Assembly (NCBI GenBank): GCA_020053275.1
Contig: JAGVNL010000026.1
Coordinates: forward strand, 6,416-70,415
Reading direction: 5' to 3'
Source of the DNA: a bacterium
GTDB taxonomy: Bacteria; Patescibacteriota; Patescibacteriia; UBA9934
Length of the DNA stretch: 64,000 nucleotides
Shown here: positions 7,318 to 50,178 of the stretch, piece after piece
How the letters are laid out: each line of letters opens with the position of its first letter
How positions within the stretch are numbered: position 1 is the first letter of the stretch
Program-made: the position numbers and the translations under genes
The notes under the pieces: model-generated
The model's database searches: none
Seen by the model: only the letters and a program-made list of their open reading frames with translations
Told to the model about the DNA's origin: nothing

Positions 7318-8679
7318 ATGAAACGACTCCTCATCAGTCTTGCTTTTAGCAGTCTTGTCCTAGCGCCTTTTGGTTCTGCGCTAGCTTTTGACCCAAATTA
7401 TATCATCTCAGACGAAGATCTTACCAACCCTTTCGCCCTCGACCGCAACCAAATTCAAGCGTACCTCGACCGCGGATTCCTCGGCACCTACCGTACGGAA
7501 GACAACACCGGGGTCGTGCGTTATGCTGCCGACATTATTTTACGCACAGCCCAAAGCGCCGGTGTCAGCCCAAAATTTCTACTCGTTCTGCTCCAAAAAG
7601 AACAAAGCTTAGTGGAGGACGACGCCCCAACCGACAGTCAACTCGACTGGGCTACTGGTTACGCGGTCTGTGACGACTGCTCCAAAGACGACGGCACCAT
7701 TCAACGCTGGCGTGGTTTTGGTAAACAAGTAAACTCTGCTGCACTCCAATTCAGTGAAGGCTATTTAGCAGATATCGAAAACTCTGGCAGCACTCAAGGT
7801 AAATACGGTCCCGATCTTCCAGTCAAAATCGACAGCACCACAGTCACCCCGGCCAACGCCGCCACCGCCGCGCTCTACGCTTATACACCGCACCTTCACG
7901 GTAACTCCAATTTCGCCTCAATTTGGGATCGCTGGTTTGGCGAAAATTACCCATCCGGGTCGCTACTTCAGGCAGTCGGCGATCCAAATGTCTATTTAAT
8001 TACCGATGGCTACAAACGACTAATCACCAGCTACAGCGCCCTTACTTCTCGCTTTAACTCAAGCTTAATCATTCAGGTAAACACAACATTACTCAGCAAT
8101 TATCCAGACGGCACACCTATCAACTTCCCAAACTATTCACTCCTACAGGATGAGGATAGTAATATTTTTCTACTTGTCGACGAAACTCTAAGGAAGATTG
8201 ACAGCGATAAAACTTTTAACAGTATTGGTTTCTCTAGCGACGAGATTGTTGACATCACAAATACAGAACGAGCTCAATATTCAGAAGGCCTGGCTATTAC
8301 CAGCGCTACCATCGCGCCCACTGGCCAACTCTACCAGCTAAAAACCAACAAAGCTGTTTATTATGTTCGTGACGGTGTAAGGCAAGTAATCGTAGATCCA
8401 GCTATTCTCGCAGCTCGTTTTCCGAATGAGGAGCCAACACCTGTCGACTCAGTCATCATCGAACAATATAAAGAAGGCAAAGCGCTACTCCTACCAGACG
8501 GCAATTTAGTTAAAGGCGCCGGCAGCCCTACAGTTTACATCATTACCGACGGCATGCGGCGTGCTATCGACTCCGAGTCTACCTTCTTAAGTTTTGGTTG
8601 GTCGTGGAATAAAATCCTCACCATCAGCGACGAAGCGCTTGCTCTCCACCCACTCGGTGCAGCACTTACCTCCGAATAA
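7318..8679 (+). CDS. secreted protein with Sec signal peptide, N-terminal conserved domain and three C-terminal ~90-aa repeats; function unknown
   Basis: Signal peptide 'MKRLLISLAFSSLVLAPFGSALA'. Three repeated modules marked by 'VYLITDGYKRLI', 'VYYVRDGVRQVI' and 'VYIITDGMRRAI'. Confidence 0.6.
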   Translation: MKRLLISLAFSSLVLAPFGSALAFDPNYIISDEDLTNPFALDRNQIQAYLDRGFLGTYRTEDNTGVVRYAADIILRTAQSAGVSPKFLLVLLQKEQSLVEDDAPTDSQLDWATGYAVCDDCSKDDGTIQRWRGFGKQVNSAALQFSEGYLADIENSGSTQGKYGPDLPVKIDSTTVTPANAATAALYAYTPHLHGNSNFASIWDRWFGENYPSGSLLQAVGDPNVYLITDGYKRLITSYSALTSRFNSSLIIQVNTTLLSNYPDGTPINFPNYSLLQDEDSNIFLLVDETLRKIDSDKTFNSIGFSSDEIVDITNTERAQYSEGLAITSATIAPTGQLYQLKTNKAVYYVRDGVRQVIVDPAILAARFPNEEPTPVDSVIIEQYKEGKALLLPDGNLVKGAGSPTVYIITDGMRRAIDSESTFLSFGWSWNKILTISDEALALHPLGAALTSE

Positions 8680-8680
8680 T

Positions 8681-9472
8681 ATGATCGTTTTTGCTGCCCA
8701 TGTTCCAAACTCTCCTCTCCTGCTGCCCTCAATCAGTGGTGACAGAATTGGTGCCGTAAAAAAAACCTGTTCGGCACTCGAACAACTCTCTGGCGAACTT
8801 TACGCAGCAAAACCAGATACCATCGTCCTCATCTCTGACCACCCAACCAGGTACAGCGAAGCCTTTTCAATTTCCGTCAGCGATCCTTTCATCGCTAATT
8901 TAGCGGAAGTCGGAGATCTCAGCTATCAAAAGTCATACCATCTAGATTTTGGTTTAATCGACGCCTTACAGCGCGGGCTACGAAAACTCGATGAACCTGT
9001 AACCCTAACCACAGATCCTCACCTCAACTTCGCATCTGCAATCCCACTTGATTATCTCACCAAGCACCTGCCAGGCATTAAACTGGTGCCAATAAGTCCG
9101 TGCGATCTTGACCCCAAATCTCATTTTAGTTTTGGCCAATCACTCAGTCACAATATAATCGAAAGCTCCAAACGCATTGCCGTAATTTCTACCGGTGACC
9201 TCGCACATACCCTTACCGACTTCGCTCCAGGCGGCCTGCATGCCAGCGGAGAACTTTATGATGACACGCTACTCACCATGCTCGAGCAACACAATGTCGT
9301 CGGTCTACTACAAATCGACGAACAACTCCGCCATGAAGCCCAAGAATCAGCCTATCATAAACTATTAATTTTGCTTGGCGTTCTAGACGGTATGCCAATT
9401 TCCACTAATTTATTAAGCTACGAATACCCATACGGAGTTGGCCTAGCCGTCATTAATTTTTTATTGGAGTAA
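8681..9472 (+). CDS. LigB/MEMO1-like protein (class III extradiol dioxygenase fold)
   Basis: N-terminal 'VFAAHVPNSPLLLP' and 'TIVLISDHP' resemble the 'HGSPM' and 'SAHW' metal-ligand motifs of the LigB/YgiD/MEMO family. Start moved to the ATG at 8681, 1 nt after the upstream stop; the ORF-track start is an in-gene TTG. Confidence 0.4.
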   Translation: MIVFAAHVPNSPLLLPSISGDRIGAVKKTCSALEQLSGELYAAKPDTIVLISDHPTRYSEAFSISVSDPFIANLAEVGDLSYQKSYHLDFGLIDALQRGLRKLDEPVTLTTDPHLNFASAIPLDYLTKHLPGIKLVPISPCDLDPKSHFSFGQSLSHNIIESSKRIAVISTGDLAHTLTDFAPGGLHASGELYDDTLLTMLEQHNVVGLLQIDEQLRHEAQESAYHKLLILLGVLDGMPISTNLLSYEYPYGVGLAVINFLLE

Positions 9473-9476
9473 TTCT

Positions 9477-11312
9477 GTGTACCTCCGAGTTTTTCCTATC
9501 CTTCGACTGCCCAGGAGGTTCGGCGTCTTTGACTACGAAATACCAGACGGACTAAATGTCTCAGCTGGAGACTTAGTGCATGTCCCTTTTCATAATCGAA
9601 TAATCCTAGCGGTTGCCGTTGCCACAACAGAACAAACCGAAGTCAGAAGTAAACTCGCTCAAGTTATAGATGTCGCTTACCATGCCGCCCTCACAGAATC
9701 AGACATCAGTCGCCTAGTGAGTCTGGCCGAATCAATTGCGCAGTCGCCCCCCACTATTTTTTTATCAACCTTCGGCAAACTCACCAACGAACAATCCGCC
9801 CCTCATCTAGTGTCGTCAAATAACTCCTCACTCTCTCTATCAAAAGACCAAGTTGAACAACTGCAGCACATTTTAAAATTAATTCGGCAGGACCCGACGA
9901 AAACTCTTACGCCCCAAAACCTCAGCGTTCAACATATCTGTTGCCAACTTGGCACCGAAGCTTCTTTTACTCTCGCCAAACTCCTCCGCCAAAAAACTAA
10001 AGAACAGATGCTCATCGTTATGCCGCGCGAACGCGATGTGGATCTTCTCGCAAAACTCATCAACCTCGGCCCGAGCACTGCCGTACTCCACGGCCACACA
10101 AAACCATACGAACGCGAAAAAATTATCCGCGCTTGGCGTTCAGGCCGCTTGTCAACATTAATCGGTACACTGCAAGCCACCCTTATCCCAGCCCAAAAAA
10201 TTGATACCGTTCTCCTCATGAACTCTGGCACAGACGATCACTTTTCTAACCGCCGCAATCCTCGCCTCGACAATCGCCTCACGGCCGCTGCACAAGCCTT
10301 ACAACATAATGCGCTCTTCATCACCACAGACTTTTTACCGCGCCCCGAAGAACTCGCTAACTCCTCATCTACTATCTACTCTCTACCTTCTACCAATCAA
10401 ATAATCATTGATCTTAAAAAACCAGACGAACAAACAGACACGCAATTACTGTCAGAAACACTCATTTCTGAGATAAATAAGGCTTTACAAAGCCGAAAAA
10501 AGGTGCTACTTTTCTACAACCGTAAGGGAGTAGCCAAACGCGTTGTCTGCTCAAGTTGCTGCGCCATGGTCATTTGCGGAGCCTGTGGCAATGTCCCGTC
10601 AATCAAGCCACCGAATGCGCATTGTCTGCGTTGCGGCAGCATCTGGCCAATCCCAGATAAATGCGGCGCCTGCACAACTGGTCGACTCAATCTCAAAGGA
10701 ATCGGTAATGCTCACCTCGAAAAAGCGTTAACAGCACTCTTCCCCGCTTTTACCGTCGGTCGCGTCGAGAAAAATCATACCGCAGGAACAGGCGCCCAAA
10801 TCCAACTTGTTACTGAGTATTTCTTTTCGAGCATCGTCAAACCATTCTCCAAAAAAGAGTATGGGTTAGTAGCGGACCTAGCAGCCGACCTGTCTCTCAA
10901 CCCAGAAAACTTTAGAGCAGAAGAAGAAACCGCCAGAAAGCTTCATCGAATATCAAACTTCGGTAAACAACAAAATGCGACTGTACTAATCCAAACATGG
11001 TTGCCGAATCTAATCGACGAAATGCGCAACGCCGAAGCATGGCTTAATAACGAAACTGCCACCCGGCAAAACTACAAACTACCACCCTTCGCCGCCCAGG
11101 TTACAGTTCGCCACGCCGACGCCGCTGCCCTCACTGCCATCACCAACCAAACATTCACCAACATTCCAGAAAAGCTTGAAGCAACCGGCCGGATTCCTTA
11201 CCATAAACTAAACGAGGTTATCACTGCAATTGCCTCACTACCTGACACCGCAGTTGTCTCTATTGATCAAACCTATGCCAGCTCTCACAGTACTCACGAA
11301 TCCAAATCCTGA
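9477..11312 (+). CDS. priA: PriA-like primosomal protein N' homolog with degenerate helicase ATPase motifs (zinc-binding module intact)
   Basis: GTG start with a GGAG Shine-Dalgarno 7 nt upstream. The N-terminal 3'-DNA-binding region aligns with PriA ('LPRRFGVFDYEIPDGLNVSAGDLVHVPFHNR'). The C4-C4 zinc module 'CSSCC...CGAC...CLRCG...CGAC' is present. Walker A reads 'GTEASFTL' instead of GSGKTEVY, Walker B DEEHD is replaced by 'NSGTDDH', and the motif VI arginine finger is absent. Confidence 0.7.
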   Translation: MYLRVFPILRLPRRFGVFDYEIPDGLNVSAGDLVHVPFHNRIILAVAVATTEQTEVRSKLAQVIDVAYHAALTESDISRLVSLAESIAQSPPTIFLSTFGKLTNEQSAPHLVSSNNSSLSLSKDQVEQLQHILKLIRQDPTKTLTPQNLSVQHICCQLGTEASFTLAKLLRQKTKEQMLIVMPRERDVDLLAKLINLGPSTAVLHGHTKPYEREKIIRAWRSGRLSTLIGTLQATLIPAQKIDTVLLMNSGTDDHFSNRRNPRLDNRLTAAAQALQHNALFITTDFLPRPEELANSSSTIYSLPSTNQIIIDLKKPDEQTDTQLLSETLISEINKALQSRKKVLLFYNRKGVAKRVVCSSCCAMVICGACGNVPSIKPPNAHCLRCGSIWPIPDKCGACTTGRLNLKGIGNAHLEKALTALFPAFTVGRVEKNHTAGTGAQIQLVTEYFFSSIVKPFSKKEYGLVADLAADLSLNPENFRAEEETARKLHRISNFGKQQNATVLIQTWLPNLIDEMRNAEAWLNNETATRQNYKLPPFAAQVTVRHADAAALTAITNQTFTNIPEKLEATGRIPYHKLNEVITAIASLPDTAVVSIDQTYASSHSTHESKS

Positions 11313-11754
11313 ATTACGGGTTCTCTCCGTCGCTTTAAGTAGCGAGGAAATCTTATTACCGCACACCCAGAAGATAATCGACGACTTGATAGAAACAATG
11401 CGCGTGGAAGATGGCGTTGGTATCGCCGCCCCACAAGTCGGCTCACACCTCCGTATCATAATCGCAGAAACCCCTCACGGTAACGAAGCATTCATCAATC
11501 CAGTCATCACCTCCAGGTCGGTCAGGCTCATCAACTCAATCGAAGGCTGTCTCTCCGTGCCCGGCATGTCAGGCACAGTAAAACGCAACTCAAGCGTCAA
11601 AGTAACAGCCCAGGACCGCACCGGCAAAACCGTCGACCTCAAAGCCAACGGCCTACTCTCGATAATCTTTCAGCACGAAATTGACCACCTAGACGGCATC
11701 CTCTTTATTGACCGCGCTGAAAAAGTAGTCACCGATGTCAAATCTCGTCTTTAA
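11275..11754 (+). CDS. def: peptide deformylase
   Basis: PDF motifs 'GIAAPQVG', 'EGCLSVPG' and 'QHEIDHLDG'. Start placed at the first ATG (159 aa); the ORF-track start at 11230 is a TTG inside priA. Confidence 0.9.
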   Translation: MPALTVLTNPNPELRVLSVALSSEEILLPHTQKIIDDLIETMRVEDGVGIAAPQVGSHLRIIIAETPHGNEAFINPVITSRSVRLINSIEGCLSVPGMSGTVKRNSSVKVTAQDRTGKTVDLKANGLLSIIFQHEIDHLDGILFIDRAEKVVTDVKSRL

Positions 11755-11811: not shown

Positions 11812-12723
11812 ATGAAAATAATATTTTTCGGCACCCCACAATTTTCCGCTAACTTCCTTCAAGGACTCTTAAACGAGCCTTCTTTCGATGTCACTGGCGT
11901 CGTCTGCCAACCAGACGAACCAATCGGTCGTAAGAAGATTTTGACGGCGCCGCCTACCAAACAATTAGCCGAGTCTCACAGCATCCCAGTCTTTCAGCCA
12001 ACTAAACTCAAGGACGAAACATTCATCGAATCTCTCCGCCAGCTAAACGCCGACGCCTTCGTGGTCGTCGCTTATGGTCGCATCATCCCACAAATTATTT
12101 TAGATATTCCAAAACTCGGCGTAATCAATCTGCACCCGTCATTACTTCCAAAGTACCGTGGCCCGTCCCCCATGCAGTCCGCCATCGCAGCTGGGGAAAC
12201 GAAAACCGGCATATCCATCATGCTGCTCGACGCCCTCATGGATCACGGCCCAATCCTCGCCCAAACAAAACTCGCCATCACCCCAACTACCACCAGCAAA
12301 TCGCTTATGACCGAAGTTGTTGCTACTGGCGTGCCATTACTAATCGAAACTTTGCAGAAGCTTGAGCATAGCGAAATCACACCAACCGAACAAGACCACT
12401 CTGTAGCCACTACCTGTTCAATGTTGTCACGAGCTGATGGCATAATAAATTGGAACCAACCAGCAGCCCTCATCGACGCCAAAATCCGCGGCCTCAACCT
12501 CTGGCCAGGCACCAGCACCACCAACCTCAAAATATTCTCAGCTATCAACACCGACCGGTCCCTGCCACCAGGCCAAGTCCTCATCGCCGCTGACCACTTG
12601 TTCATCGGCACCGGCACCACCGCTCTAGAAATTACCGAACTCCAACCAACCGCTGGCAAACGCATGCCCGCCAAAGCCTTCATTGCCGGCCATCACGAAC
12701 TTAACGGTACGAGTCTCCTGTAA
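11812..12723 (+). CDS. fmt: methionyl-tRNA formyltransferase
   Basis: N-terminal 'KIIFFGTP' and 'HPSLLPKYRG' formyltransferase motifs. Canonical def-fmt arrangement. Confidence 0.92.
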   Translation: MKIIFFGTPQFSANFLQGLLNEPSFDVTGVVCQPDEPIGRKKILTAPPTKQLAESHSIPVFQPTKLKDETFIESLRQLNADAFVVVAYGRIIPQIILDIPKLGVINLHPSLLPKYRGPSPMQSAIAAGETKTGISIMLLDALMDHGPILAQTKLAITPTTTSKSLMTEVVATGVPLLIETLQKLEHSEITPTEQDHSVATTCSMLSRADGIINWNQPAALIDAKIRGLNLWPGTSTTNLKIFSAINTDRSLPPGQVLIAADHLFIGTGTTALEITELQPTAGKRMPAKAFIAGHHELNGTSLL

Positions 12724-12945: not shown

Positions 12946-14232
12946 TTAAAGTTCAATCACCGCATCGCAATTGTTTATAAGTTCATCACGATTGTCTGCA
13001 ATGAGAATCGTGTTATTTTTATCAATAATTTTTTGGAAAACTTTTATTATTACTGGAAGATCACTCAAGTGCAAACCACGAGAAGGTGTGTCGAGAATAT
13101 AAATACACCTATCGCCAAGCTTCTTAGACAATATCTTCGCCAACTTCACCCGCTGTGCCTCACCACCGCTCAATGTTCCAGAGCGTTGGCCGAGCGGTAA
13201 ATAACCAAGACCGACTTCCTGCAAAAAGCCCAGCTTTCGTTGCACAAGAGGAAATGCAGAAAACAGAGCAACAGCGTCATCAATAGTCAGCTTCAATAAA
13301 TCATTGATTGAAATATCCTTATACTCAATCTTCGCCACTGCTGCCGAGTCAGCCTTGCCGTCTTTAGTATTAAAACTGAAATGTGCCTTCTTTAGCTTAG
13401 CCTTTTTGCTAGCTGGCAAATTAGCATAAACTGCACGAATCACATCCCATACGCCAAGATAGGTCGCTGGCGTGCTGGTGGGCGAACCGCTTAATGGCCG
13501 CTGATCCACAAAGTATGATCGACGGACATCAGACTTGCCCTCTATCCCTTTGAAGCCAGTTTTAAGTTTCCAAGCACCATTACCCTTAAACAACGCACCA
13601 TAAACCACACTCAATAATGTCGACTTACCAGAACCGGAAGGCCCAGTAACGCACACCAAATTATTCAACGAAATCGTCACCGAATAATTTTTCAACGAAT
13701 TTTTAGTAATACCATTAATCGTCAACTCTCGTTTCCTCATGCGCAGAGCCTTCTCACTTGGCTTTCTAGCATAGTCGATAGTTTCGGCAAGACTAGAAAA
13801 AGCATAACGAGCGGTTGGCGTCTTAGCTTTCTTAAACTCGGCAATGCCACCAGCAAAAACCACCTCGCCACCTTTCGATCCAGACTCAGGGCCAAACTCA
13901 ATAACATATTCAGCGCCAGCAATAATATCTTTGTTATGCTCAACAACAATTACAGAAATATCTCGTGCTACCAATTCTCGTAGCAGCTTTAGCACCTCCT
14001 GTCGTTCCTTGTGAGCCAAACCTGCGCATGGTTCGTCAACAATCAACAAATCGTCCTTTTTCATTGTTCGTGCCGCCTCTCGTAGTAAATACCAATTAGT
14101 CTCACCCAAACTTTTACCAGGCAAAGCAACCACCTTCTGCGCCACCACATGAGTCTTCGGCAAACCGGTCACAACTGCCTCCACCTTCTTATCCGAGGTT
14201 GTTAGCCTTGGCGTTCTTAATAGAAATTTCAT
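12946..14232 (-). pseudogene. UvrA-like ABC ATPase fragment (degenerate or truncated excinuclease subunit A paralog)
   Basis: The 428-aa ORF aligns to UvrA from the end of NBD-I ('LLIVDEPCAGLAHKERQ...VIVVEHNKDII...FGPESGSKGGEVVF') through the NBD-II Walker A ('GPSGSGKST') and signature ('LSGGEAQRVKLAKIL'). The NBD-I Walker A, UvrB-binding and zinc-finger regions are missing, the third zinc finger is deleted, and the NBD-II H-loop His is replaced by Asp ('IADNRDEL'). The ORF ends about 70 aa before the usual UvrA C-terminus. Confidence 0.6.
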
Positions 14233-14267: not shown

Positions 14268-16025
14268 TTATGGCAAGAATCCGCCAGCCTGGATGCTCCA
14301 AAGCTTATTATAAGTCCCTTCGCGTTCAATAAGCTCTTGGTGCGTACCAGTGTCAACTACTCTGCCCTTTTCTATAACGACGATCCTATTCATCTGCATA
14401 ATTGTAGAAAGACGGTGCGCGATAACAATAACAGTTTTGCTCTTCATTAGTTCTCGTAACGCATCCTGAATAAGCGACTCACTTTCACTATCAAGGCTGC
14501 TGGTAGCCTCGTCAAGAACAAGAATTGGCGCGTTCTTAAGAATTGCTCTAGCAATAGCAACCCGTTGTCGCTCACCACCAGAAAGCTTAATGCCCCGTTC
14601 ACCAACCTTGGTATCGTAGCCATGTGGCAATTCAGAAATAAACTCATGACAATGCGCTTTCTTACTGGCTGCAATCACTTCCTTATCACTAGCATCCCGC
14701 CGGCCATAACGAATATTCTCCATCACCGTCCGGTGAAATAGCAACGAATCCTGCGGCACGAGCGAAACAAGTGTTCGCAAACTATCCTGCGTCACTTTAC
14801 TAATATCCTGCCCATCAATAGTTATCAAGCCTCTTGAAACATCAAAAAATCTCATCAGTAGCTTAATTATCGTACTCTTTCCCGCCCCACTTGGCCCAAC
14901 AAAGGCCACCTTTTCTCGTGGCTTTATCTCGAGCGTCATGTCACTCAAAATTTCTCGCCCATCGCTATAACTAAACGACACCTTATGAAAGTTTATTTCA
15001 CCTTTTTTAACCATTAGCTTCTTAGCGCCCCTCTTATCAACTAACTCATACGGCATCTCAAGAATATCTACCATCTCTCTGGCCTCTGCAAAACCGTCAT
15101 ACAAATCGCGAATAACTCGACCAAAATCGAACAACCGAATAAACAAACCAATGAGCGCCGTCTGGATAAGAGCAAAATCACCAAGCGTTATGACACCAGC
15201 AACATACATATTGATAGCTACAAACATCGACACCGCGTTCAACAGCAACATAAAACCACCTTGCACAGCGTCGTTGATCACACCAAGATTCCAAGTAAAA
15301 ACCGCCATCCTGTGCCATCGACCGTTGACTTCCGCAAATCTCGCTTCCTCAAATTTCTTACCAACAAACTGCTGAATGGTCACAGCGTTACCCACCGCAT
15401 CAGCCAAAACTCCACTTGATTCCGTATCTAGCTCAGCCCGTTTTATATCCCATTTCAACTTCCACCTAGCAACCATGATATTAATAACAACAAACAGCAC
15501 TGCCCAAATGCTAAGTATAAACGCAAACAACGGACTACGAAGATAAAAAATAACAATCGTACCAACAATCGCCACTACAATCTGTATCAACTTCCAGGTC
15601 AGCAAGTCCATCAGCCGCTCAAAAGATCTGCCAAAACGGTGCACCTTTTTAACCAGTGAACCTGCAAAATTATCAGTGAAAAACCGGTACGAATGATTCA
15701 ATAAGTGCGCAAAAGCGGTCTGCTCAAGGTCGACGATAATCCGTGGCTGCAAATAGTTATTAAGAAAATCGGCAATACGGCGCACCACCCACATACCAAC
15801 ATCAAGCCCTACCATCAAGAACAGTACACCAAACAAAGTTGCTGCCAAAGCAGTCCCCGATTGGCCTGTCGCGAATGAGTCAAAAAACTTTTTACTTAAC
15901 AGCGCAGGTACCAAATTAGCTAAATCTAGCACCAGTAAAGCAACAATAAAAATCGAAAATCTAATCGGGTAGCGCCTAACATGAGCCCAATATATTTTGA
16001 TTGTTGGCCTAACAGATAATGACAT
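14268..16025 (-). CDS. ABC transporter, fused permease/ATPase (MsbA/exporter type)
   Basis: 585 aa. Six N-terminal TM helices, Walker A 'GPSGAGKST', signature 'LSGGERQRVAIARA', Walker B 'ILVLDEATS'. Confidence 0.9.
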   Translation of the reverse strand: MSLSVRPTIKIYWAHVRRYPIRFSIFIVALLVLDLANLVPALLSKKFFDSFATGQSGTALAATLFGVLFLMVGLDVGMWVVRRIADFLNNYLQPRIIVDLEQTAFAHLLNHSYRFFTDNFAGSLVKKVHRFGRSFERLMDLLTWKLIQIVVAIVGTIVIFYLRSPLFAFILSIWAVLFVVINIMVARWKLKWDIKRAELDTESSGVLADAVGNAVTIQQFVGKKFEEARFAEVNGRWHRMAVFTWNLGVINDAVQGGFMLLLNAVSMFVAINMYVAGVITLGDFALIQTALIGLFIRLFDFGRVIRDLYDGFAEAREMVDILEMPYELVDKRGAKKLMVKKGEINFHKVSFSYSDGREILSDMTLEIKPREKVAFVGPSGAGKSTIIKLLMRFFDVSRGLITIDGQDISKVTQDSLRTLVSLVPQDSLLFHRTVMENIRYGRRDASDKEVIAASKKAHCHEFISELPHGYDTKVGERGIKLSGGERQRVAIARAILKNAPILVLDEATSSLDSESESLIQDALRELMKSKTVIVIAHRLSTIMQMNRIVVIEKGRVVDTGTHQELIEREGTYNKLWSIQAGGFLP

Positions 16026-24159: not shown

Positions 24160-24510
24160 TTAGACGAATTCGATGAGTGCCAAGTCGGCCGCATCACCCT
24201 GACGAGCACCGAGTTTGGTAATCCGAGTATAACCACCAGTACGGGTCATGAAACGAGGTCCCAAGACTTCGAGCAGCTTTTTGACTGGCTGTTCAGTAGT
24301 GAAGTAGCCAAGCAAGGCGCGGCGAGTGGCCAGGTCATTCTTGCGAGCCAAGGTAACCAACTTCTCTACCGCTGGCCTGGCATACTTAGCCCGAGCAATG
24401 GTTGTCTCTACCTTCTCGTAGGTAATGAGACTGGTAACCAAGTCGCGTAGTAATGCTTTGCGGCCAGAGGTATGGCGACTAAAGGTTTTCTTATTTTTAC
24501 GATGTCGCAT
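24160..24510 (-). CDS. rplQ: 50S ribosomal protein L17
   Basis: 'MRHRKNKKTFSRHTSGRKALLRDLVTSLITYEKVETT' L17 signature. Follows rpoA. Confidence 0.92.
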   Translation of the reverse strand: MRHRKNKKTFSRHTSGRKALLRDLVTSLITYEKVETTIARAKYARPAVEKLVTLARKNDLATRRALLGYFTTEQPVKKLLEVLGPRFMTRTGGYTRITKLGARQGDAADLALIEFV

Positions 24511-24515
24511 AACTG

Positions 24516-25259
24516 TTAGCCTTCGGCCGAAGCATCAGATGCTTTCGCAATCTGTTCGGTGAGTGAGGCGTGACTCAACTGGCTTTGAATCCAGGTGAAG
24601 TGATTGAGAATAATTTTGGTGGCGTGTTCGACTGCTTCCTGCGGCGTCACCGTGCCGTCTGTGATGATGTTCATGATGACCTTGTCGTAGTTGGTAATTT
24701 CACCAACGCGCGTGTTCTCAATGCGGATACCACACTGGCGCACCGGGCTGAACAAAGCGTCCACACCGATCATACCAATCTCTGTGTTTGGTACTTCGCG
24801 CTCCTCGGTTGGCATGTAACCACGGCCACGAGATACCACGATGTCCATTTCGAAGTTGATGCTGTCGGTCAGCGTGCAAAGTACTAAGTCTGGGTTCATG
24901 ATTTCCACATCAGCGTTGGCAGAAATGTCTGCAGCGGTGACGATACCTGGCTTGTTAGCTGTTACGCGTAAAATTACAGGCTCTTCTGAGTGTACCTTCA
25001 TGCGCAACTGCTTCAGGTTCAACATGACCTCCAAACCATCTTCTTTGACACCGGTGATGGCAGCAAACTCATGCTGCACACCCTTGATCTTCATGGCTGT
25101 AACTGCCGCACCAGGCAAAGACGAAAGCAATACTCGGCGCAGTGAGTTGCCAACTGTAGTGCCATATCCATGATGGAGAGGCTCGATGGTAAGAATGGCC
25201 TCGTGCTCTTGTTCACCGGTCGTGAAGTACATCTTTGACGGAAGAAGAATGTTCTCCAT
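24516..25259 (-). CDS. rpoA: DNA-directed RNA polymerase alpha subunit, N-terminal domain only (no alpha-CTD encoded)
   Basis: 247 aa. Alpha-NTD motifs 'LTIEPLHHGYGTTVGNSLRRVLLSSLPGAAVTA'. The ORF stops about 10 aa after the NTD and is followed directly by rplQ. No linker or CTD ('…NCLK…' HhH) region is present. Confidence 0.85.
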   Translation of the reverse strand: MENILLPSKMYFTTGEQEHEAILTIEPLHHGYGTTVGNSLRRVLLSSLPGAAVTAMKIKGVQHEFAAITGVKEDGLEVMLNLKQLRMKVHSEEPVILRVTANKPGIVTAADISANADVEIMNPDLVLCTLTDSINFEMDIVVSRGRGYMPTEEREVPNTEIGMIGVDALFSPVRQCGIRIENTRVGEITNYDKVIMNIITDGTVTPQEAVEHATKIILNHFTWIQSQLSHASLTEQIAKASDASAEG

Positions 25260-45730: not shown

Positions 45731-46086
45731 TAATCCGAGGTACAGTAACCGCTGGCTTAGGAATAGCCAGCAAAGTATTCGGCATACCAACTGCCAATCT
45801 TATTATCAACGAACCATTAAGTCTAAACTCTGGCGTCTACATTGGCCACACAAGCTTCAACGGTACTTCATATCCATCTATTATTTGCTATGGAATCGGA
45901 TCCACAAACAAATTCGAGGTACATTTACTTAATACAAATCTCAATCTATACGGAGAGACCTTAACTGTCGACATCGGTGAAAAAATAAGTGAGATAGTTG
46001 CCGAACCAGACCTAGAAAAGCTCAAAACAAAAATACTAGCAGATGTTGAAAAAGCTAAACAACATTTCCGCCAAATGCATCCGTAA
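45727..46086 (+). CDS. riboflavin kinase domain protein (monofunctional RFK)
   Basis: 'GTVTAGLGIASKVFGIPTANL' is the RFK glycine-rich flavin-binding motif. 119 aa. ATGA overlap with ribH. Confidence 0.6.
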   Translation: MIIRGTVTAGLGIASKVFGIPTANLIINEPLSLNSGVYIGHTSFNGTSYPSIICYGIGSTNKFEVHLLNTNLNLYGETLTVDIGEKISEIVAEPDLEKLKTKILADVEKAKQHFRQMHP

Positions 46087-47602
46087 GTAATGCTACAGCA
46101 GCTTCCTCTTTGGCAGACGCTGCCACAACCTCCGTCACAATAATCGGCCGTTGCATCATCACACCAGCAATCGCGTCCTCAAGCAAACGCAAATTTTTAG
46201 CGTCCTTCAGGGCGTCGGCATGAAAAGCATACGGAAAAGAAACGGTTAGTTTAGAACCATTGATCGCAATCGGCTTGCCAGTTCGCAAAGTAATCGGCAA
46301 CGAGACATTTAGATCATTTACTTTGTCACAGCAGCGCTCCCATTTATCTTGAATTTCTGCCAGCGTAAATGTAATCGGCATAACACTATTTATGTTATCA
46401 GCGATATTCAATGGCGGTAACGAAGCCTCAACAGCAACGATTTTAACATCAGATGCCGAACGAGGTGCTACTAAGCCTCCAATATTACCAGTAGCTGCGT
46501 TCGGTTGCATCGCTGCAATACTAGACGAAACAGGCAGGTTCGCAGTCTCCCGCACTACCGAGTCATCGCCAAGCATAAACTCCACCAACGCCAGCTCTAG
46601 CGGTAATTGAGGTAAAGCCGACAACGAGTGTCTACCACGAGCAGTCAACAACAAATCAAGCAATCGCCTGGCCTGAACGGACTCAAATACTGCCTGCTTT
46701 CCGGAGATCGAGTTCATTAAATCCTCACGGACTTCTTCGATAAGTTCGTCAGTAAAATGCTTGATCGAACCACCATCAACCACGAACGCACTAATCTTAT
46801 CGAGTGTAGCACCCACATCCTTCTTCACTAACAAATCGATAATTTCACGAACAAGCGTAATTGTAGTTACGGGTAAAATCAAAGAGGCTAACGAGGCCGT
46901 AATGTGTTTATCGCCAAGTGACAAAACTTGGCCAAGCAAGCTTTCTGCATCACGCAAACACCCTTCAGAAATCTTGACGATAACCCGCAAGACCTCGTCG
47001 TCCACCTCAACGCCCTCTTTTTTAGAAATTGATAATAAACGAGCTACCATCTCGGGAGCAGCAATCTTATGAAAATCAAACCGTTGACACCTACTAACAA
47101 TCGTCGCTGGTATTTTATGTAGTTCAGTCGTCGCCAATATAAATATGACATGAGCTGGCGGCTCCTCCAGTGTTTTCAATAATGCATTGAACGCAGACGC
47201 AGAAAGCATGTGAACTTCATCTATAACAAAAACCTTATACTTCCCTTGCTGCGGCACAAACCGCACATTCTCAATTATATTCTCCCGCACATTATCTACA
47301 CCCGTATTACTCGCCGCATCAATTTCTACTGTATCCAAAAACCGTCCATCGCCAAAAGCCAAGCAGTGATCGCAAATACCACACGGCTCACTCTCACCTT
47401 CTTTTCGATTTAAACAATTAACAGCCTTTGCAAGTAGTCGAGCAATGGTGGTCTTGCCAATCCCTCGTGAACCCGAAAACAAATAGGCATGCGCCAATGT
47501 ACCGCTGGCTATTTGGTTCTGAATAGTTTTTACAACATGTTCCTGCTCAGCGACATCCTCAAACCTAGCCGGGCGATATTTTCTATACAATGTCTCACTC
47601 AT
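46055..47602 (-). CDS. dnaX: DNA polymerase III subunit gamma/tau
   Basis: 'AYLFSGSRGIGKTTIARLLAKAVNC' Walker A, zinc module 'CGICDHC', 'VFVIDEVHML', SRC motif. Confidence 0.9.
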   Translation of the reverse strand: MSETLYRKYRPARFEDVAEQEHVVKTIQNQIASGTLAHAYLFSGSRGIGKTTIARLLAKAVNCLNRKEGESEPCGICDHCLAFGDGRFLDTVEIDAASNTGVDNVRENIIENVRFVPQQGKYKVFVIDEVHMLSASAFNALLKTLEEPPAHVIFILATTELHKIPATIVSRCQRFDFHKIAAPEMVARLLSISKKEGVEVDDEVLRVIVKISEGCLRDAESLLGQVLSLGDKHITASLASLILPVTTITLVREIIDLLVKKDVGATLDKISAFVVDGGSIKHFTDELIEEVREDLMNSISGKQAVFESVQARRLLDLLLTARGRHSLSALPQLPLELALVEFMLGDDSVVRETANLPVSSSIAAMQPNAATGNIGGLVAPRSASDVKIVAVEASLPPLNIADNINSVMPITFTLAEIQDKWERCCDKVNDLNVSLPITLRTGKPIAINGSKLTVSFPYAFHADALKDAKNLRLLEDAIAGVMMQRPIIVTEVVAASAKEEAAVALLTDAFGGNVV

Positions 47603-47628: not shown

Positions 47629-50178
47629 CTACAGGCCAACCGGAGGCAGGGGGACAACTGGTTGCACTTGTTTAGGCACACCGACGCCAGAACGCAGAGC
47701 AATCTCGCGCTCCACAATCTTCTTGTCGCGACCATAAAGCAAACGAGAAATTTCTTTGAGAGCCTGGCCAACTTTTGGACTGCCTTCTTGTTTATTGTCG
47801 ACGCGAAGTGTAAACGGCTTACCCTGAGCGTTGTCGATGATAATCTTACAATTCCATGTTAACGCCTCATTATTCATCAGGTCGTAAGCAGAAAATGTAG
47901 GCTCAAACACTTTCTCCAGTACCTCGGTATCATCAGGGCCGACACGCGACACAAACATGCTGCCCACATTGCCGAGCACAGCATCACGAATCTCACTCTT
48001 GCCGTCCTTCACCAACTGGCCCATATACTGGTGCGCCATGATCAAGTTAAGACGATACTTACGAGCCTCGGACAAAATAGTAGCAATACTTGGCGTCACG
48101 AAGTTTTGGAATTCGTCGACATAAAGATAAAAATCTTTGCGTTTACTCTCCTCCATATCAGCACGAGCAAAAGCCGCCATCTGCAACTTGGCCACAATAA
48201 TCAAACCAAGCAGCGACGCATTAACTTCGCCAGTTTTACCTTTAGACAAATTGACCAAAAGAATCTTACCCTCGTCCATTATTTCACGGAAGTTGAAGGC
48301 GGATTTACTTTGACCGATAATGTTACGCATCATCTCGTTCTCCACAAACCTACCAACCTTACTCACTAGATATCCCATGGTTTCACTCTTGTGGTAGTCA
48401 CTAGTCTTGGCCTGCTCATCCTCCCAGAAACTACGCACAACAGGGTCCTTAACACGAGCAATCCACTCCTTCTGGAAAGCGTCGTCCGCAATCATGCGTG
48501 GGATTTCTGCAATCGTACCAGGGTAAGTCGGGTCCGCCATCAAGGTAAGCATGAAGTTACGCATGGAGTGCTCAAACATCGGGCCGATCATTTCCGGTGG
48601 GAACAACATATAGAAGATGCTGATCATCTCCTGCACCGCAAAGTCGCGCATGTCCTCACTTGGTGCCTCCAGCATGTTTAAGCCCATTGGTCGTTCGGTA
48701 TCGCTTGGGTTGAAGTAAACAACATCATCGTATCGTTCTTTTGGAATAAGCTCCATTATGCCGTCTGCCAAGTCTCCGTGCGGATCAATAACACCAACAC
48801 CTTTACCAGCAATAATATCTTGAATAACCAAGTTCTTAATAAACTCAGACTTACCAGAACCAGTCTTACCAATAATGTACATGTGGCGACGGCGGTCACC
48901 GTCTTTGATAAATACTGGTTTTGTAGCGCCGCGATAGGTGTTGGTACCCAAACGCAAACCTTCAGTTGGCGTGTTAGTTGGGGCCGGGGCGACACGCGCC
49001 ATCATCCACAAAATATTCGGCGTATCAGTACTTGGCAACGGCAAATGCCACATAGACGCCATTTCTTCGGTATTCAAAATAATTTTCTGATACCTGGCAA
49101 AAGTACGATAAATGAAGTGCTCGATTAAACGGCGCTTGCGGAGCGGCAACACCTTCTGCAAGGAGTTACCATACTCATAAATGTTATATTGACCGAACGC
49201 TTGCAATGCATTGTTTAGGTTCGCCAACGCCATTTGAGCGGATTTCGCCGAAGAAACGATGCGAATATTTACTTCCATTCCGGCCTTAGAAATTTTATTT
49301 CCAACTCCCTCCAACATCTTAGATTCCGTTTGTGACAACTGTTTTTGATCTCTTCGTTCAGACTTTTGTTTCTCAATATCTTCTTTACTCGCAAACCAGC
49401 TACCAACAGTTTTACCCTTTTTCGCTTCTTCAAGCGACATGCCATTCTGCATGTTCCTTATAATCTTAGTACCCAGTTCACGCCAATTATGGTGAGTTGG
49501 GCGAATAATATATTGTACTACCAAACCATCGCCTTCTTCTACCTTAGACAAAGCATTGGTTAATGAATTCAACGGGTCTGAATCATTTTCTTTATAAGTC
49601 TTGAGAGGGAAAATAGACTCTCGTTTCAACTCTAAATAGCCGCCGAGAACAATGCCAGTAGTTGAAAAAATATTATAATCCTCAACCTCCTTCAAGCTGG
49701 CGTCACTATACTGAGCGTGCAACTGCTGCTGCACAAAATCATACATGTTGCGCGGTACATTAATGTAAAAAGAAACGAGCTTGTTATGAGCTACAATTTC
49801 TAATGCAATGGAATCTGTTCTCCCAGCAAACCAAGCATGAATACCAAAACCATGATGTGGTTTTACGCCACCAATAGCCGCAAAAAAAGTTTCCGCAATA
49901 GCAATCGACTCCTTAATAACTTGTGCTGTTTCATTACCCTTAGCTTCTTCTTGGTTGCGGTACCGAGGAATGGTTACTAGTAATGTAATGTTGGTATGCT
50001 TGCCTCCCTGCTGTCTAAACCTGCGATGCATCTTGTAACGCAACAGAAATATACCGCCAATTATTGCCCCAACAATCAGCAAAGCAATTATTAAACGCAA
50101 CCAAATGGACGAGCCACCGGTTGCAACATACTGTGTAGTTGCTACTTCGCCTGCAATGAGAAATAAGCCTGGAAGCAC
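47629..50178 (-). CDS. type IV secretion-type ATPase (VirD4/TraG/TraD coupling-protein-like or VirB4-like) with two N-terminal TM helices
   Basis: 849 aa. Two N-terminal TM helices, Walker A 'IIGKTGSGKSEF' at roughly residue 430, Walker B 'LYVDEFQNF' (a T4CP-like DEFxN). Confidence 0.5.
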   Translation of the reverse strand: MLPGLFLIAGEVATTQYVATGGSSIWLRLIIALLIVGAIIGGIFLLRYKMHRRFRQQGGKHTNITLLVTIPRYRNQEEAKGNETAQVIKESIAIAETFFAAIGGVKPHHGFGIHAWFAGRTDSIALEIVAHNKLVSFYINVPRNMYDFVQQQLHAQYSDASLKEVEDYNIFSTTGIVLGGYLELKRESIFPLKTYKENDSDPLNSLTNALSKVEEGDGLVVQYIIRPTHHNWRELGTKIIRNMQNGMSLEEAKKGKTVGSWFASKEDIEKQKSERRDQKQLSQTESKMLEGVGNKISKAGMEVNIRIVSSAKSAQMALANLNNALQAFGQYNIYEYGNSLQKVLPLRKRRLIEHFIYRTFARYQKIILNTEEMASMWHLPLPSTDTPNILWMMARVAPAPTNTPTEGLRLGTNTYRGATKPVFIKDGDRRRHMYIIGKTGSGKSEFIKNLVIQDIIAGKGVGVIDPHGDLADGIMELIPKERYDDVVYFNPSDTERPMGLNMLEAPSEDMRDFAVQEMISIFYMLFPPEMIGPMFEHSMRNFMLTLMADPTYPGTIAEIPRMIADDAFQKEWIARVKDPVVRSFWEDEQAKTSDYHKSETMGYLVSKVGRFVENEMMRNIIGQSKSAFNFREIMDEGKILLVNLSKGKTGEVNASLLGLIIVAKLQMAAFARADMEESKRKDFYLYVDEFQNFVTPSIATILSEARKYRLNLIMAHQYMGQLVKDGKSEIRDAVLGNVGSMFVSRVGPDDTEVLEKVFEPTFSAYDLMNNEALTWNCKIIIDNAQGKPFTLRVDNKQEGSPKVGQALKEISRLLYGRDKKIVEREIALRSGVGVPKQVQPVVPLPPVGL

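Follow-up and report, generated by a model that had tools for sequence, protein, structure and literature searches.

The window considered here is a stretch of 64,000 nucleotides (64 kb) of contig JAGVNL010000026.1 in a genome assembly of the Patescibacteriota (GCA_020053275.1, positions 6,416 to 70,415 of the forward strand), and with clpB, ppa, gltX, alaS, cysS, rpoA, rpsD, rpsK, dnaX, dnaK, dnaJ and grpE, as well as hrcA, era, murJ and glycosyltransferase genes, its gene content is that of ordinary chromosomal DNA of a small-genome bacterium. Between positions 9477 and 11312 it carries an intact open reading frame (ORF) for a homolog of the replication restart protein PriA in which the ATPase motifs of the helicase have been erased. 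The ORF starts 4 nt downstream of a gene for a LigB/Memo-like protein and is followed by def and fmt, and the N-terminus of its product, MYLRVFPILRLPRRF, lines up in alignments with the N-termini of the other family members. The overlap or adjacency of priA and def is kept in related loci, while the other conserved upstream gene, encoding a protein of 453 amino acids (up453), gave no Pfam match.

The initial annotation had taken the ORF for a PriA homolog with a 3'-end-binding domain (3'BD) and a zinc-binding region, and on this point Pfam, phmmer, hhalign and Foldseek agree. The Pfam model PriA_3primeBD (PF17764) matched residues 14-91 (E 1.5e-9), and PriA was the only significant match in a phmmer search of the PDB sequences (E ~1e-24). 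In hhalign, the profile built from 86 family members matched one built from 25 canonical PriAs over 520 aligned columns (probability 100%, E 2e-60). All NCBIfam PriA models matched the protein as well, each below its cutoff; TIGR00595 (priA) scored 129.8 bits where 230.35 are required, and the curated equivalog threshold was thus not reached. An AlphaFold2 model based on the family alignment had a pLDDT of 92.5 and a pTM of 0.92, and its nine best Foldseek matches in the PDB were all PriA (TM 0.65-0.73, E down to 5.6e-34). The PriA structures matched were 4NL4, 8FAK, 6DCR, 6DGD and 4NL8, with 4NL4, 6DCR and 8FAK at E-values of 1e-33 to 1e-34 and TM values of 0.68-0.73, and the lowest root mean square deviation among the full-length matches (5.9 Å) was found for 6DCR, an Escherichia coli PriA engineered to lack the winged-helix (WH) domain. 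Judged by profile comparison and predicted structure, the ORF is a full-length PriA homolog with a bilobed RecA-like core and a global fold of the PriA type.

The positions of the helicase motifs were derived from MAFFT alignments with canonical PriAs, the most informative being the one that included evolutionary intermediates. In motif I, the canonical GVTGSGKTE is replaced by HICCQLGTE, in motif Ia PEIGLT (PEIxLT) by PRERD, in motif II DEEHD by MNSGT, in motif III GSATP by TTDFLP (SAT to TDF), in motif V GTQMLAKGHHFP by VTEYFFSSIVKPF, and in motif VI GRAGR by NFGKQ, with both arginines gone. A regular expression search found none of the patterns GxxxxGK[ST], DExH/D or GRxGR anywhere in the protein. 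By alignment, the protein therefore lacks all residues needed for ATP binding or hydrolysis, namely the Walker A lysine, the Walker B Asp-Glu pair, motif III and the motif VI arginines. The Walker A lysine corresponds to G159, and in this column none of 87 family members has a lysine; the counts in the column are D 52, S 26, N 4, G 3 and A 1. Across the family, the former P-loop columns are hypervariable, hence the P-loop appears to be unconstrained. In the column of the Walker B Asp, all 87 members carry L, F, Y, I, M or V. Strings of the type GK[ST] do occur in some relatives, and we rejected these as P-loops since they are located in insertions or in LHGKT, at the position of LHSGL in E. 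coli.

These results bear out the initial annotation in that all ATPase elements are degenerate (motifs I, II, III, V and VI) and that RAGR of motif VI is lost. It had proposed to compare orthologs for the same substitutions, and the Walker A lysine and the Walker B Asp are absent throughout the 87 relatives. It had further read Walker A as changed from GSGKT to GTEAS, which is correct for the loss of the lysine, while the register was shifted by about three residues with no effect on the conclusion. For Walker B it had aligned DEEHD to N-SGTDDH; the loss of Asp and Glu stands, but the register is probably different. In the hhalign alignment, a 4-residue insertion does bring the conserved D253-D254-H255 triplet opposite EEH of the DEEH motif, whereas the alignment with the intermediate sequences places MNSGT under DEEHD and, free of gaps, DDH under the SSY that follows DEEH. 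We favor the gap-free alignment and consider the pairing of DDH with EEH less likely.

The protein retains the 3'BD, and the pocket residues F18-D19-Y20 (nt 9528-9536) correspond to F16-D17-Y18 of E. coli, where D17 and Y18 have roles in the 3'-end pocket (PMC5778457); 85 of the 86 family members have FDY. The eight cysteines of the cysteine-rich region (CRR), C358, C361, C367, C370, C383, C386, C396 and C399, are invariant both in the family and in canonical PriA, with a spacing of 3-6-3-13-3-10-3 as compared to 3-6-3-15-3-10-3 in E. coli, one hairpin loop being two residues shorter; the Pfam model PriA_CRR (PF18319) did not match the protein. The claim of intact zinc-binding and DNA-binding modules thus holds for the CRR cysteines and the 3'BD, but no WH domain separates the 3'BD from lobe 1, since canonical PriAs have at least about 100 more alignment columns at this place and only a linker of about 50 residues is found here. 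That 6DCR, a structure lacking WH, is among the best structural matches fits this absence. The C-terminal domain (CTD) appears shortened: the hhalign alignment stops at residue 545, Pfam PriA_C (PF18074) gave no match, and the predicted structure has a small alpha/beta domain at about residues 538-600.

Several elements of the core are kept or remodeled. A remnant of the aromatic-rich loop (ARL), which in E. coli PriA contacts single-stranded DNA (ssDNA) of the lagging strand (PMC5175346), is seen as RRNPRxDxR, and its homology to the canonical PRYHARD is visible in the graded series of intermediates described below; N261 and P262 never vary, and 82 of 86 members have R260. The PriA-specific blocks after motif V (DLaaD..FRAeE..ARKL, QT and R..Y.LPP) are retained. 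Altogether, 32 alignment columns are invariant, new lineage-specific motifs among them, and the eight cysteines, FDY, NRKGxA, TEYFFSS, RNP and R491 show no or almost no variation. The residues in place of the catalytic ones (PRERD, DDH, RRNPR and TEYFFSS) are themselves strongly conserved, which suggests that the old cleft may have taken on a new structural or binding role. The coordinates of all elements are given in Table 1.

Table 1. Features of the priA locus in the window (positions in the 64,000-nt stretch; all on the + strand)
Feature	Position	Strand	Remarks
Two conserved upstream genes: 453-aa protein (up453) and LigB/Memo-like protein	7318..9472	+	same block
GGAG Shine-Dalgarno sequence (ribosome-binding site)	9466..9469	+	7 nt 5' of GTG; read directly from the sequence
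priA ORF (putative pseudohelicase)	9477..11312	+	611 aa; GTG start at 9477, TGA stop at 11310-11312, uninterrupted
3'-end-binding domain (3'BD)	9477..9776	+	residues ~1-100; PF17764
Short linker in place of WH domain	9777..9926	+	residues ~101-150; single helix 123-137 (DSSP)
RecA-like lobe 1 (HD1), ATPase motifs erased	9927..10376	+	residues ~151-300
Former Walker A site, H153-E161 (HICCQLGTE)	9933..9959	+	no P-loop, no lysine
Conserved P-R-E-R-D at motif Ia position	10023..10037	+	lineage-specific; P 81, R 73, E 72, R 82, D 77 of 86
Former Walker B site, V245-T252 (VLLMNSGT)	10209..10232	+	Mg-binding Asp and catalytic Glu replaced
DDH and RRNPRxDxR, residues 253-267	10233..10277	+	remnant of aromatic-rich loop (canonical YKQ..PRYHARD)
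RecA-like lobe 2 (HD2), first part, with motif IV NRKGVA	10377..10547	+	N348, K350, G351 and A353 invariant
Cysteine-rich region (CRR)	10548..10673	+	residues 358-399, inserted in lobe 2; two predicted Zn sites
RecA-like lobe 2 (HD2), second part	10674..11087	+	former motifs V and VI and PriA-specific blocks
Former motif V, now TEYFFSS	10809-10847	+	alignment
Former motif VI, now RISNFGKQ	10947-10970	+	alignment
Predicted C-terminal alpha/beta domain, apparently shortened	11088..11276	+	residues ~538-600; DSSP and pLDDT; tail 602-611 disordered
def (peptide deformylase)	11275..11754	+	overlaps priA 3' end by 38 nt
fmt (methionyl-tRNA formyltransferase)	11812..12723	+	TIGR00460, 271 bits

The same loss is found throughout a large family. 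A word-indexed search gave about 87 clusters of 550-650 amino acids with 31-78% identity, to which the column counts above refer, and in an exhaustive hidden Markov model search of 1.84 billion representative proteins the best 150 matches all had E-values of 1e-76 or lower, none of them carrying a P-loop. More than 200 cluster representatives agree in length and have invariant motifs of their own. The named members belong to Candidatus Uhrbacteria or to the "Patescibacteria group", the taxonomy of the relatives resting on names in NCBI and other public records, and some are labeled as "helicase-related protein" or "hypothetical". Several public records of metagenome-assembled genomes titled "uncultured Gammaproteobacteria bacterium" (TPA_asm bins) also carry the Uhrbacteria-type gene block, with protein identities to the window of up to 77-88%, and their titles look like placeholders or wrong taxonomy.

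Less degenerate forms connect this family to canonical PriA. One branch of about 645 amino acids, which includes a protein of Candidatus Falkowbacteria, has retained D[DN]EE as well as a full CTD. Among intermediates of about 655-670 amino acids, P0372 has kept Walker A and B (GPASSGKT and DEEQ) and lost the motif VI arginines, and P0371, P0374 and P0327 have lost Walker A and kept DDEH, DEED or DEEH. Moreover, PriAs without a WH domain and with intact motifs were found in other uncultured lineages (P0461, 658 aa; P0379, 657 aa). These share the compact layout, the location of Walker A at about residue 152 and the adjacency to fmt with the Uhrbacteria protein; they keep GVTGSGKT, DEEH/Q and GRAGR, which in the latter are erased, and in P0461 GVTGSGKT lies at residue 152, where motif I has disappeared. 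The existence of such forms indicates that the loss of WH preceded the loss of the ATPase and was independent of it, and a WH domain is accordingly no strict hallmark of PriA. The sequences thereby form a graded series from full motifs through loss of motif VI, then of Walker A, then of Walker B, to loss of everything, and a neighbor-joining tree has the canonical forms on one side followed by a grade of intermediates leading to the Uhrbacteria clade. This tree is rough and prone to long-branch artefacts, and the support that we draw from it for a single origin is weak. Its topology can be reconciled with a single ancient loss and gradual erosion thereafter.

The position of the gene is equally stable. 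In agreement with the initial annotation, which had seen the genomic priA in its conserved priA-def-fmt context, this position is held in all 36 GTDB species representative loci, and every locus long enough to show it has the order up453, Memo/LigB-like gene, priA homolog, def and fmt. Falkowbacteria have the same block with AMMECR1 added between the Memo-like gene and priA, and in another lineage a canonical, WH-less short PriA adjoins fmt. Taken together, these arrangements indicate that the gene holds the ancestral priA slot, and by positional orthology it would be the orthologous priA of a genome of Candidatus Uhrbacteria, a lineage of the Candidate Phyla Radiation (CPR)/Patescibacteria. 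The upstream pair, for its part, looks like a portion of an AmmeMemoRadiSam-type set without the radical-SAM partner.

Two known systems are helpful for interpreting a PriA of this kind. The PriA of Deinococcus radiodurans has no ATPase or helicase activity and still binds ssDNA, fork DNA and DnaB (Lopper, Boone and Morrow, 2015; PMC4504706), and Deinococcus was named in a 2018 review as the only exception to the conserved helicase activity of PriA (PMC5778457). In E. coli, K230R and K230A variants of PriA are devoid of ATPase, helicase and translocase activity and yet support PriA-PriB restart and DnaB loading (PMC5778457, PMC10175261), and published cryo-EM structures revealed that forks are recognized through the 3'BD and the core. 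As in Deinococcus-Thermus, the Uhrbacteria protein is a natural ortholog in a retained gene with Walker A and B predicted to be non-functional, and the scaffold behavior that experiments revealed for Deinococcus would apply to it in the same way. In Deinococcus PriA, however, the P-loop can still be recognized, with its K changed to R, and Walker B is poor, whereas nothing is left of motifs I, II, III, V and VI in the Uhrbacteria protein, which belongs to another phylum and is compact (611 aa), without WH and with an apparently shortened CTD. Given the graded series inside uncultured, CPR-like lineages, the two losses are likely independent. The E. coli priA300 protein (K230R/K230A) provides the mechanistic template of an ATPase-dead PriA, but it is an engineered point mutant that is otherwise canonical and works with WH and PriB/DnaT, while in the Uhrbacteria protein the whole cleft is remodeled. 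With canonical PriA (TIGR00595; PDB 4NL4, 6DGD and 8FAK) and with 6DCR the protein shares the order 3'BD, HD1, HD2 with inserted CRR, and a putative CTD, as well as the eight cysteines, motif IV, the PR..R of the ARL and the blocks that come after motif V, at a TM value of 0.73; what sets it apart is that it is without the ATPase motifs of superfamily 2, falls under the TIGR00595 cutoff and lacks PriA_CRR and PriA_C matches.

Since the modules used in the ATP-independent steps of E. coli and D. radiodurans PriA are kept, the best explanation is that the Uhrbacteria priA product is a pseudohelicase that serves as an ATP-independent scaffold for fork recognition and helicase recruitment, to which we assign a probability of roughly 0.7. 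The 3'BD pocket F18-D19-Y20 would cap the leading-strand 3' end, and the protein would recognize abandoned forks or D-loops in which the lagging-strand template is already single-stranded. This ssDNA could be held between lobe 2, the CRR and the CTD, with the two RecA-like lobes, together with the ARL remnant and motif IV, acting as a structural and ssDNA-binding platform. The CRR and the surface of the core may then form the docking site that brings in DnaB, directly or through a putative partner, so that the helicase would be recruited with no unwinding of the lagging strand by PriA itself. A helicase-dead PriA that may work as a restart scaffold had also been proposed in the initial annotation, and the profile comparisons, the structure prediction, the family and the synteny are all in favor of it.

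PriA identity and fold, motif loss, conservation, purifying selection and synteny come directly from the present analysis, while we infer the lack of ATPase activity, the DNA binding, the restart role and the partner. Some points weigh against the scaffold. The WH domain, which aids E. coli PriA in binding forks without a 3' end, is missing, and the E. coli PriB-docking and SSB-tail residues could not be mapped onto the protein. Furthermore, priA is the fastest-evolving gene of the block, with about 33% identity at the deepest comparisons as compared to 50-60% for its neighbors, and the search for a second priA covered the 64-kb window.

A more far-reaching version, which we regard as tentative and rather unlikely, is that PriA was rebuilt within a large radiation of the CPR (Uhrbacteria, Falkowbacteria and relatives) as an ATP-independent fork clamp. 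The former nucleotide cleft, lined by the lineage-invariant PRERD, [DE][DE]H, RRNPR and TEYFFSS, would have acquired a new function, which could be to grip ssDNA of the lagging strand or to dock DnaB directly. Organisms without PriB, DnaT, DnaD and DnaC would then have PriA as their entire restart primosome, and the intermediates would mark the route from motor to adaptor. Alternatively, the protein may be neofunctionalized, with the old cleft and PRERD, [DE][DE]H, RRNPR and TEYFFSS binding another ligand or partner, for instance as a DNA-structure sensor or regulator, and restart no longer its main job. The replacements of the catalytic residues are more strongly conserved than a scaffold would need, and the acidic-acidic-His triplet is kept at 253-255; but the most conserved parts are fork-recognition features (the 3'BD pocket, the CRR, the ARL remnant and the PriA-specific HD2 blocks), synteny is unchanged, and the known pseudohelicase PriA retains fork and DnaB binding, which makes this option distinctly unlikely.

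It is very unlikely, too, that the gene is a specialized paralog with a side role, and that an intact, helicase-proficient priA is located elsewhere in the genome. A tblastn search with five canonical PriAs matched only this locus and no second priA in the window; this leaves some room for a second copy given that 64 kb of the genome were checked and that canonical WH-less short PriAs occur in other uncultured lineages. On the other hand, the ancestral slot is occupied in all 36 species loci, and in the rough tree the degenerate forms make up a grade that departs from the canonical ones and not a sister clade of paralogs. CPR genomes are small (~1 Mb), and priA is normally single-copy, which also counts against a paralog.

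The initial annotation had offered relaxed selection in a reduced genome as another way to account for the gene, and an erosion toward a pseudogene could be read from the loss of all catalytic motifs, the fast evolution within a conserved block and the score under the NCBIfam cutoff. We calculated dN/dS by the Nei-Gojobori method for the window and its three closest relatives, leaving out the LigB-like gene because its extracted reading frames did not agree, and obtained 0.05-0.12 for priA (0.076 for the least saturated pair, with dN 0.043 and dS 0.56), 0.07-0.11 for fmt and 0.03-0.07 for def. Since priA is in the same range as these essential neighbors and its length and motifs are widely conserved, relaxed selection is rejected as highly improbable; the intact ORF, the 32 invariant columns with their lineage-specific motifs and the confident AlphaFold2 model point the same way. 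Just as improbable is a protein that still acts as ATPase or helicase through a non-canonical nucleotide site. Acidic residues and a His do remain near the old Walker B, and earlier work in E. coli proposed a second, weak nucleotide site (PMC5778457), but there is no P-loop anywhere in the protein, its motif VI retains neither arginine, the family varies extremely in the Walker A columns, and the single substitution K230R is enough to kill E. coli PriA (PMC5778457).

Finally, that the protein is a divergent RecG, Mfd or DEAD-box helicase can practically be dismissed in spite of a Pfam Helicase_C match at residues 166-231 and weak DEAD-box matches in the PDB, because the nine best Foldseek matches are all PriA with Mfd, the next fold, far behind (E 1e-11, TM 0.3), the 3'BD, CRR and global fold fit PriA only, the hhalign alignment extends over 520 columns, and the Helicase_C match, which sits in lobe 1, is due to the general resemblance among RecA folds. 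The initial annotation had named a RecG/DEAD identity or a canonical motif elsewhere in the protein as findings that would overturn it; we looked for both by regular expressions, hhalign and Foldseek and found neither. We also considered the Helicase_C match (9972-10169), normally that of a lobe-2 model and here located in lobe 1, as a domain rearrangement, and rejected this. It is also present in the precomputed annotations of many relatives and can mislead automatic domain architectures.

Other parts of the window deserve mention. Its rpoA (24516-25259, - strand, with 24160-24510, - strand) encodes only 247 amino acids, with Pfam RNA_pol_A_bac and RNA_pol_L matches, and is followed immediately by rplQ, rplM and rpsI; no alpha C-terminal domain is encoded at that site. 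At 12946-14232 (- strand) lies a gene for a soluble ABC-type ATPase of 428 amino acids with PF00005 and SMC_N matches only, whose sequence (GPSGSGKST ... LSGGEAQRVKLA) resembles a half or a fragment of the UvrA type and not a transporter subunit; a full ABC exporter adjoins it at 14268-16025. A protein of 849 amino acids (47629-50178, - strand) with weak matches to ATPases of the VirD4/TrwB/HerA type (type IV secretion coupling protein; E ~1e-8 to 1e-9) is encoded directly next to dnaX (46055-47602), in a housekeeping region.

The window also has a very strong strand asymmetry. The GC skew of the + strand is -0.19 overall, and third codon positions alone give -0.51 for genes on the + strand and +0.31 for genes on the - strand when these are read on their coding strand; 29 of 40 genes are on the - strand, and C greatly exceeds G on the + strand regardless of gene orientation. 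The skew is -0.17 to -0.22 in close relatives and milder (-0.05 to -0.13) at other Uhrbacteria loci, and in 34 of 36 loci the strand of the priA block is C-rich, with a negative skew over the ~5-22 kb of the locus. The asymmetry resembles a replication-strand mutational bias of unusual strength.

A PriA pseudohelicase as a kind is already known (Lopper et al., 2015), and full-text literature searches returned no report on PriA in CPR/Patescibacteria and none on a PriA pseudohelicase beyond Deinococcus; the lineage, the completeness of the motif loss and the WH-less architecture appear to be undescribed. Uhrbacteria are probably a second natural lineage, after Deinococcus, that keeps PriA as a scaffold recognizing DNA forks and not as a helicase. 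They would be a second and much more radical exception to the helicase-proficient PriA, one that extends over at least two CPR lineages and hundreds of sequence clusters under strong purifying selection. Since such PriAs fall under the curated cutoffs and are often called "hypothetical" or "helicase-related", priA may be scored as absent in surveys of CPR genomes. In conclusion, the stepwise loss of motifs would constitute a natural separation-of-function series, which may pinpoint the PriA surfaces needed for the ATP-independent core job, namely the 3'BD pocket, the CRR, the ARL remnant, motif IV and the blocks after motif V.

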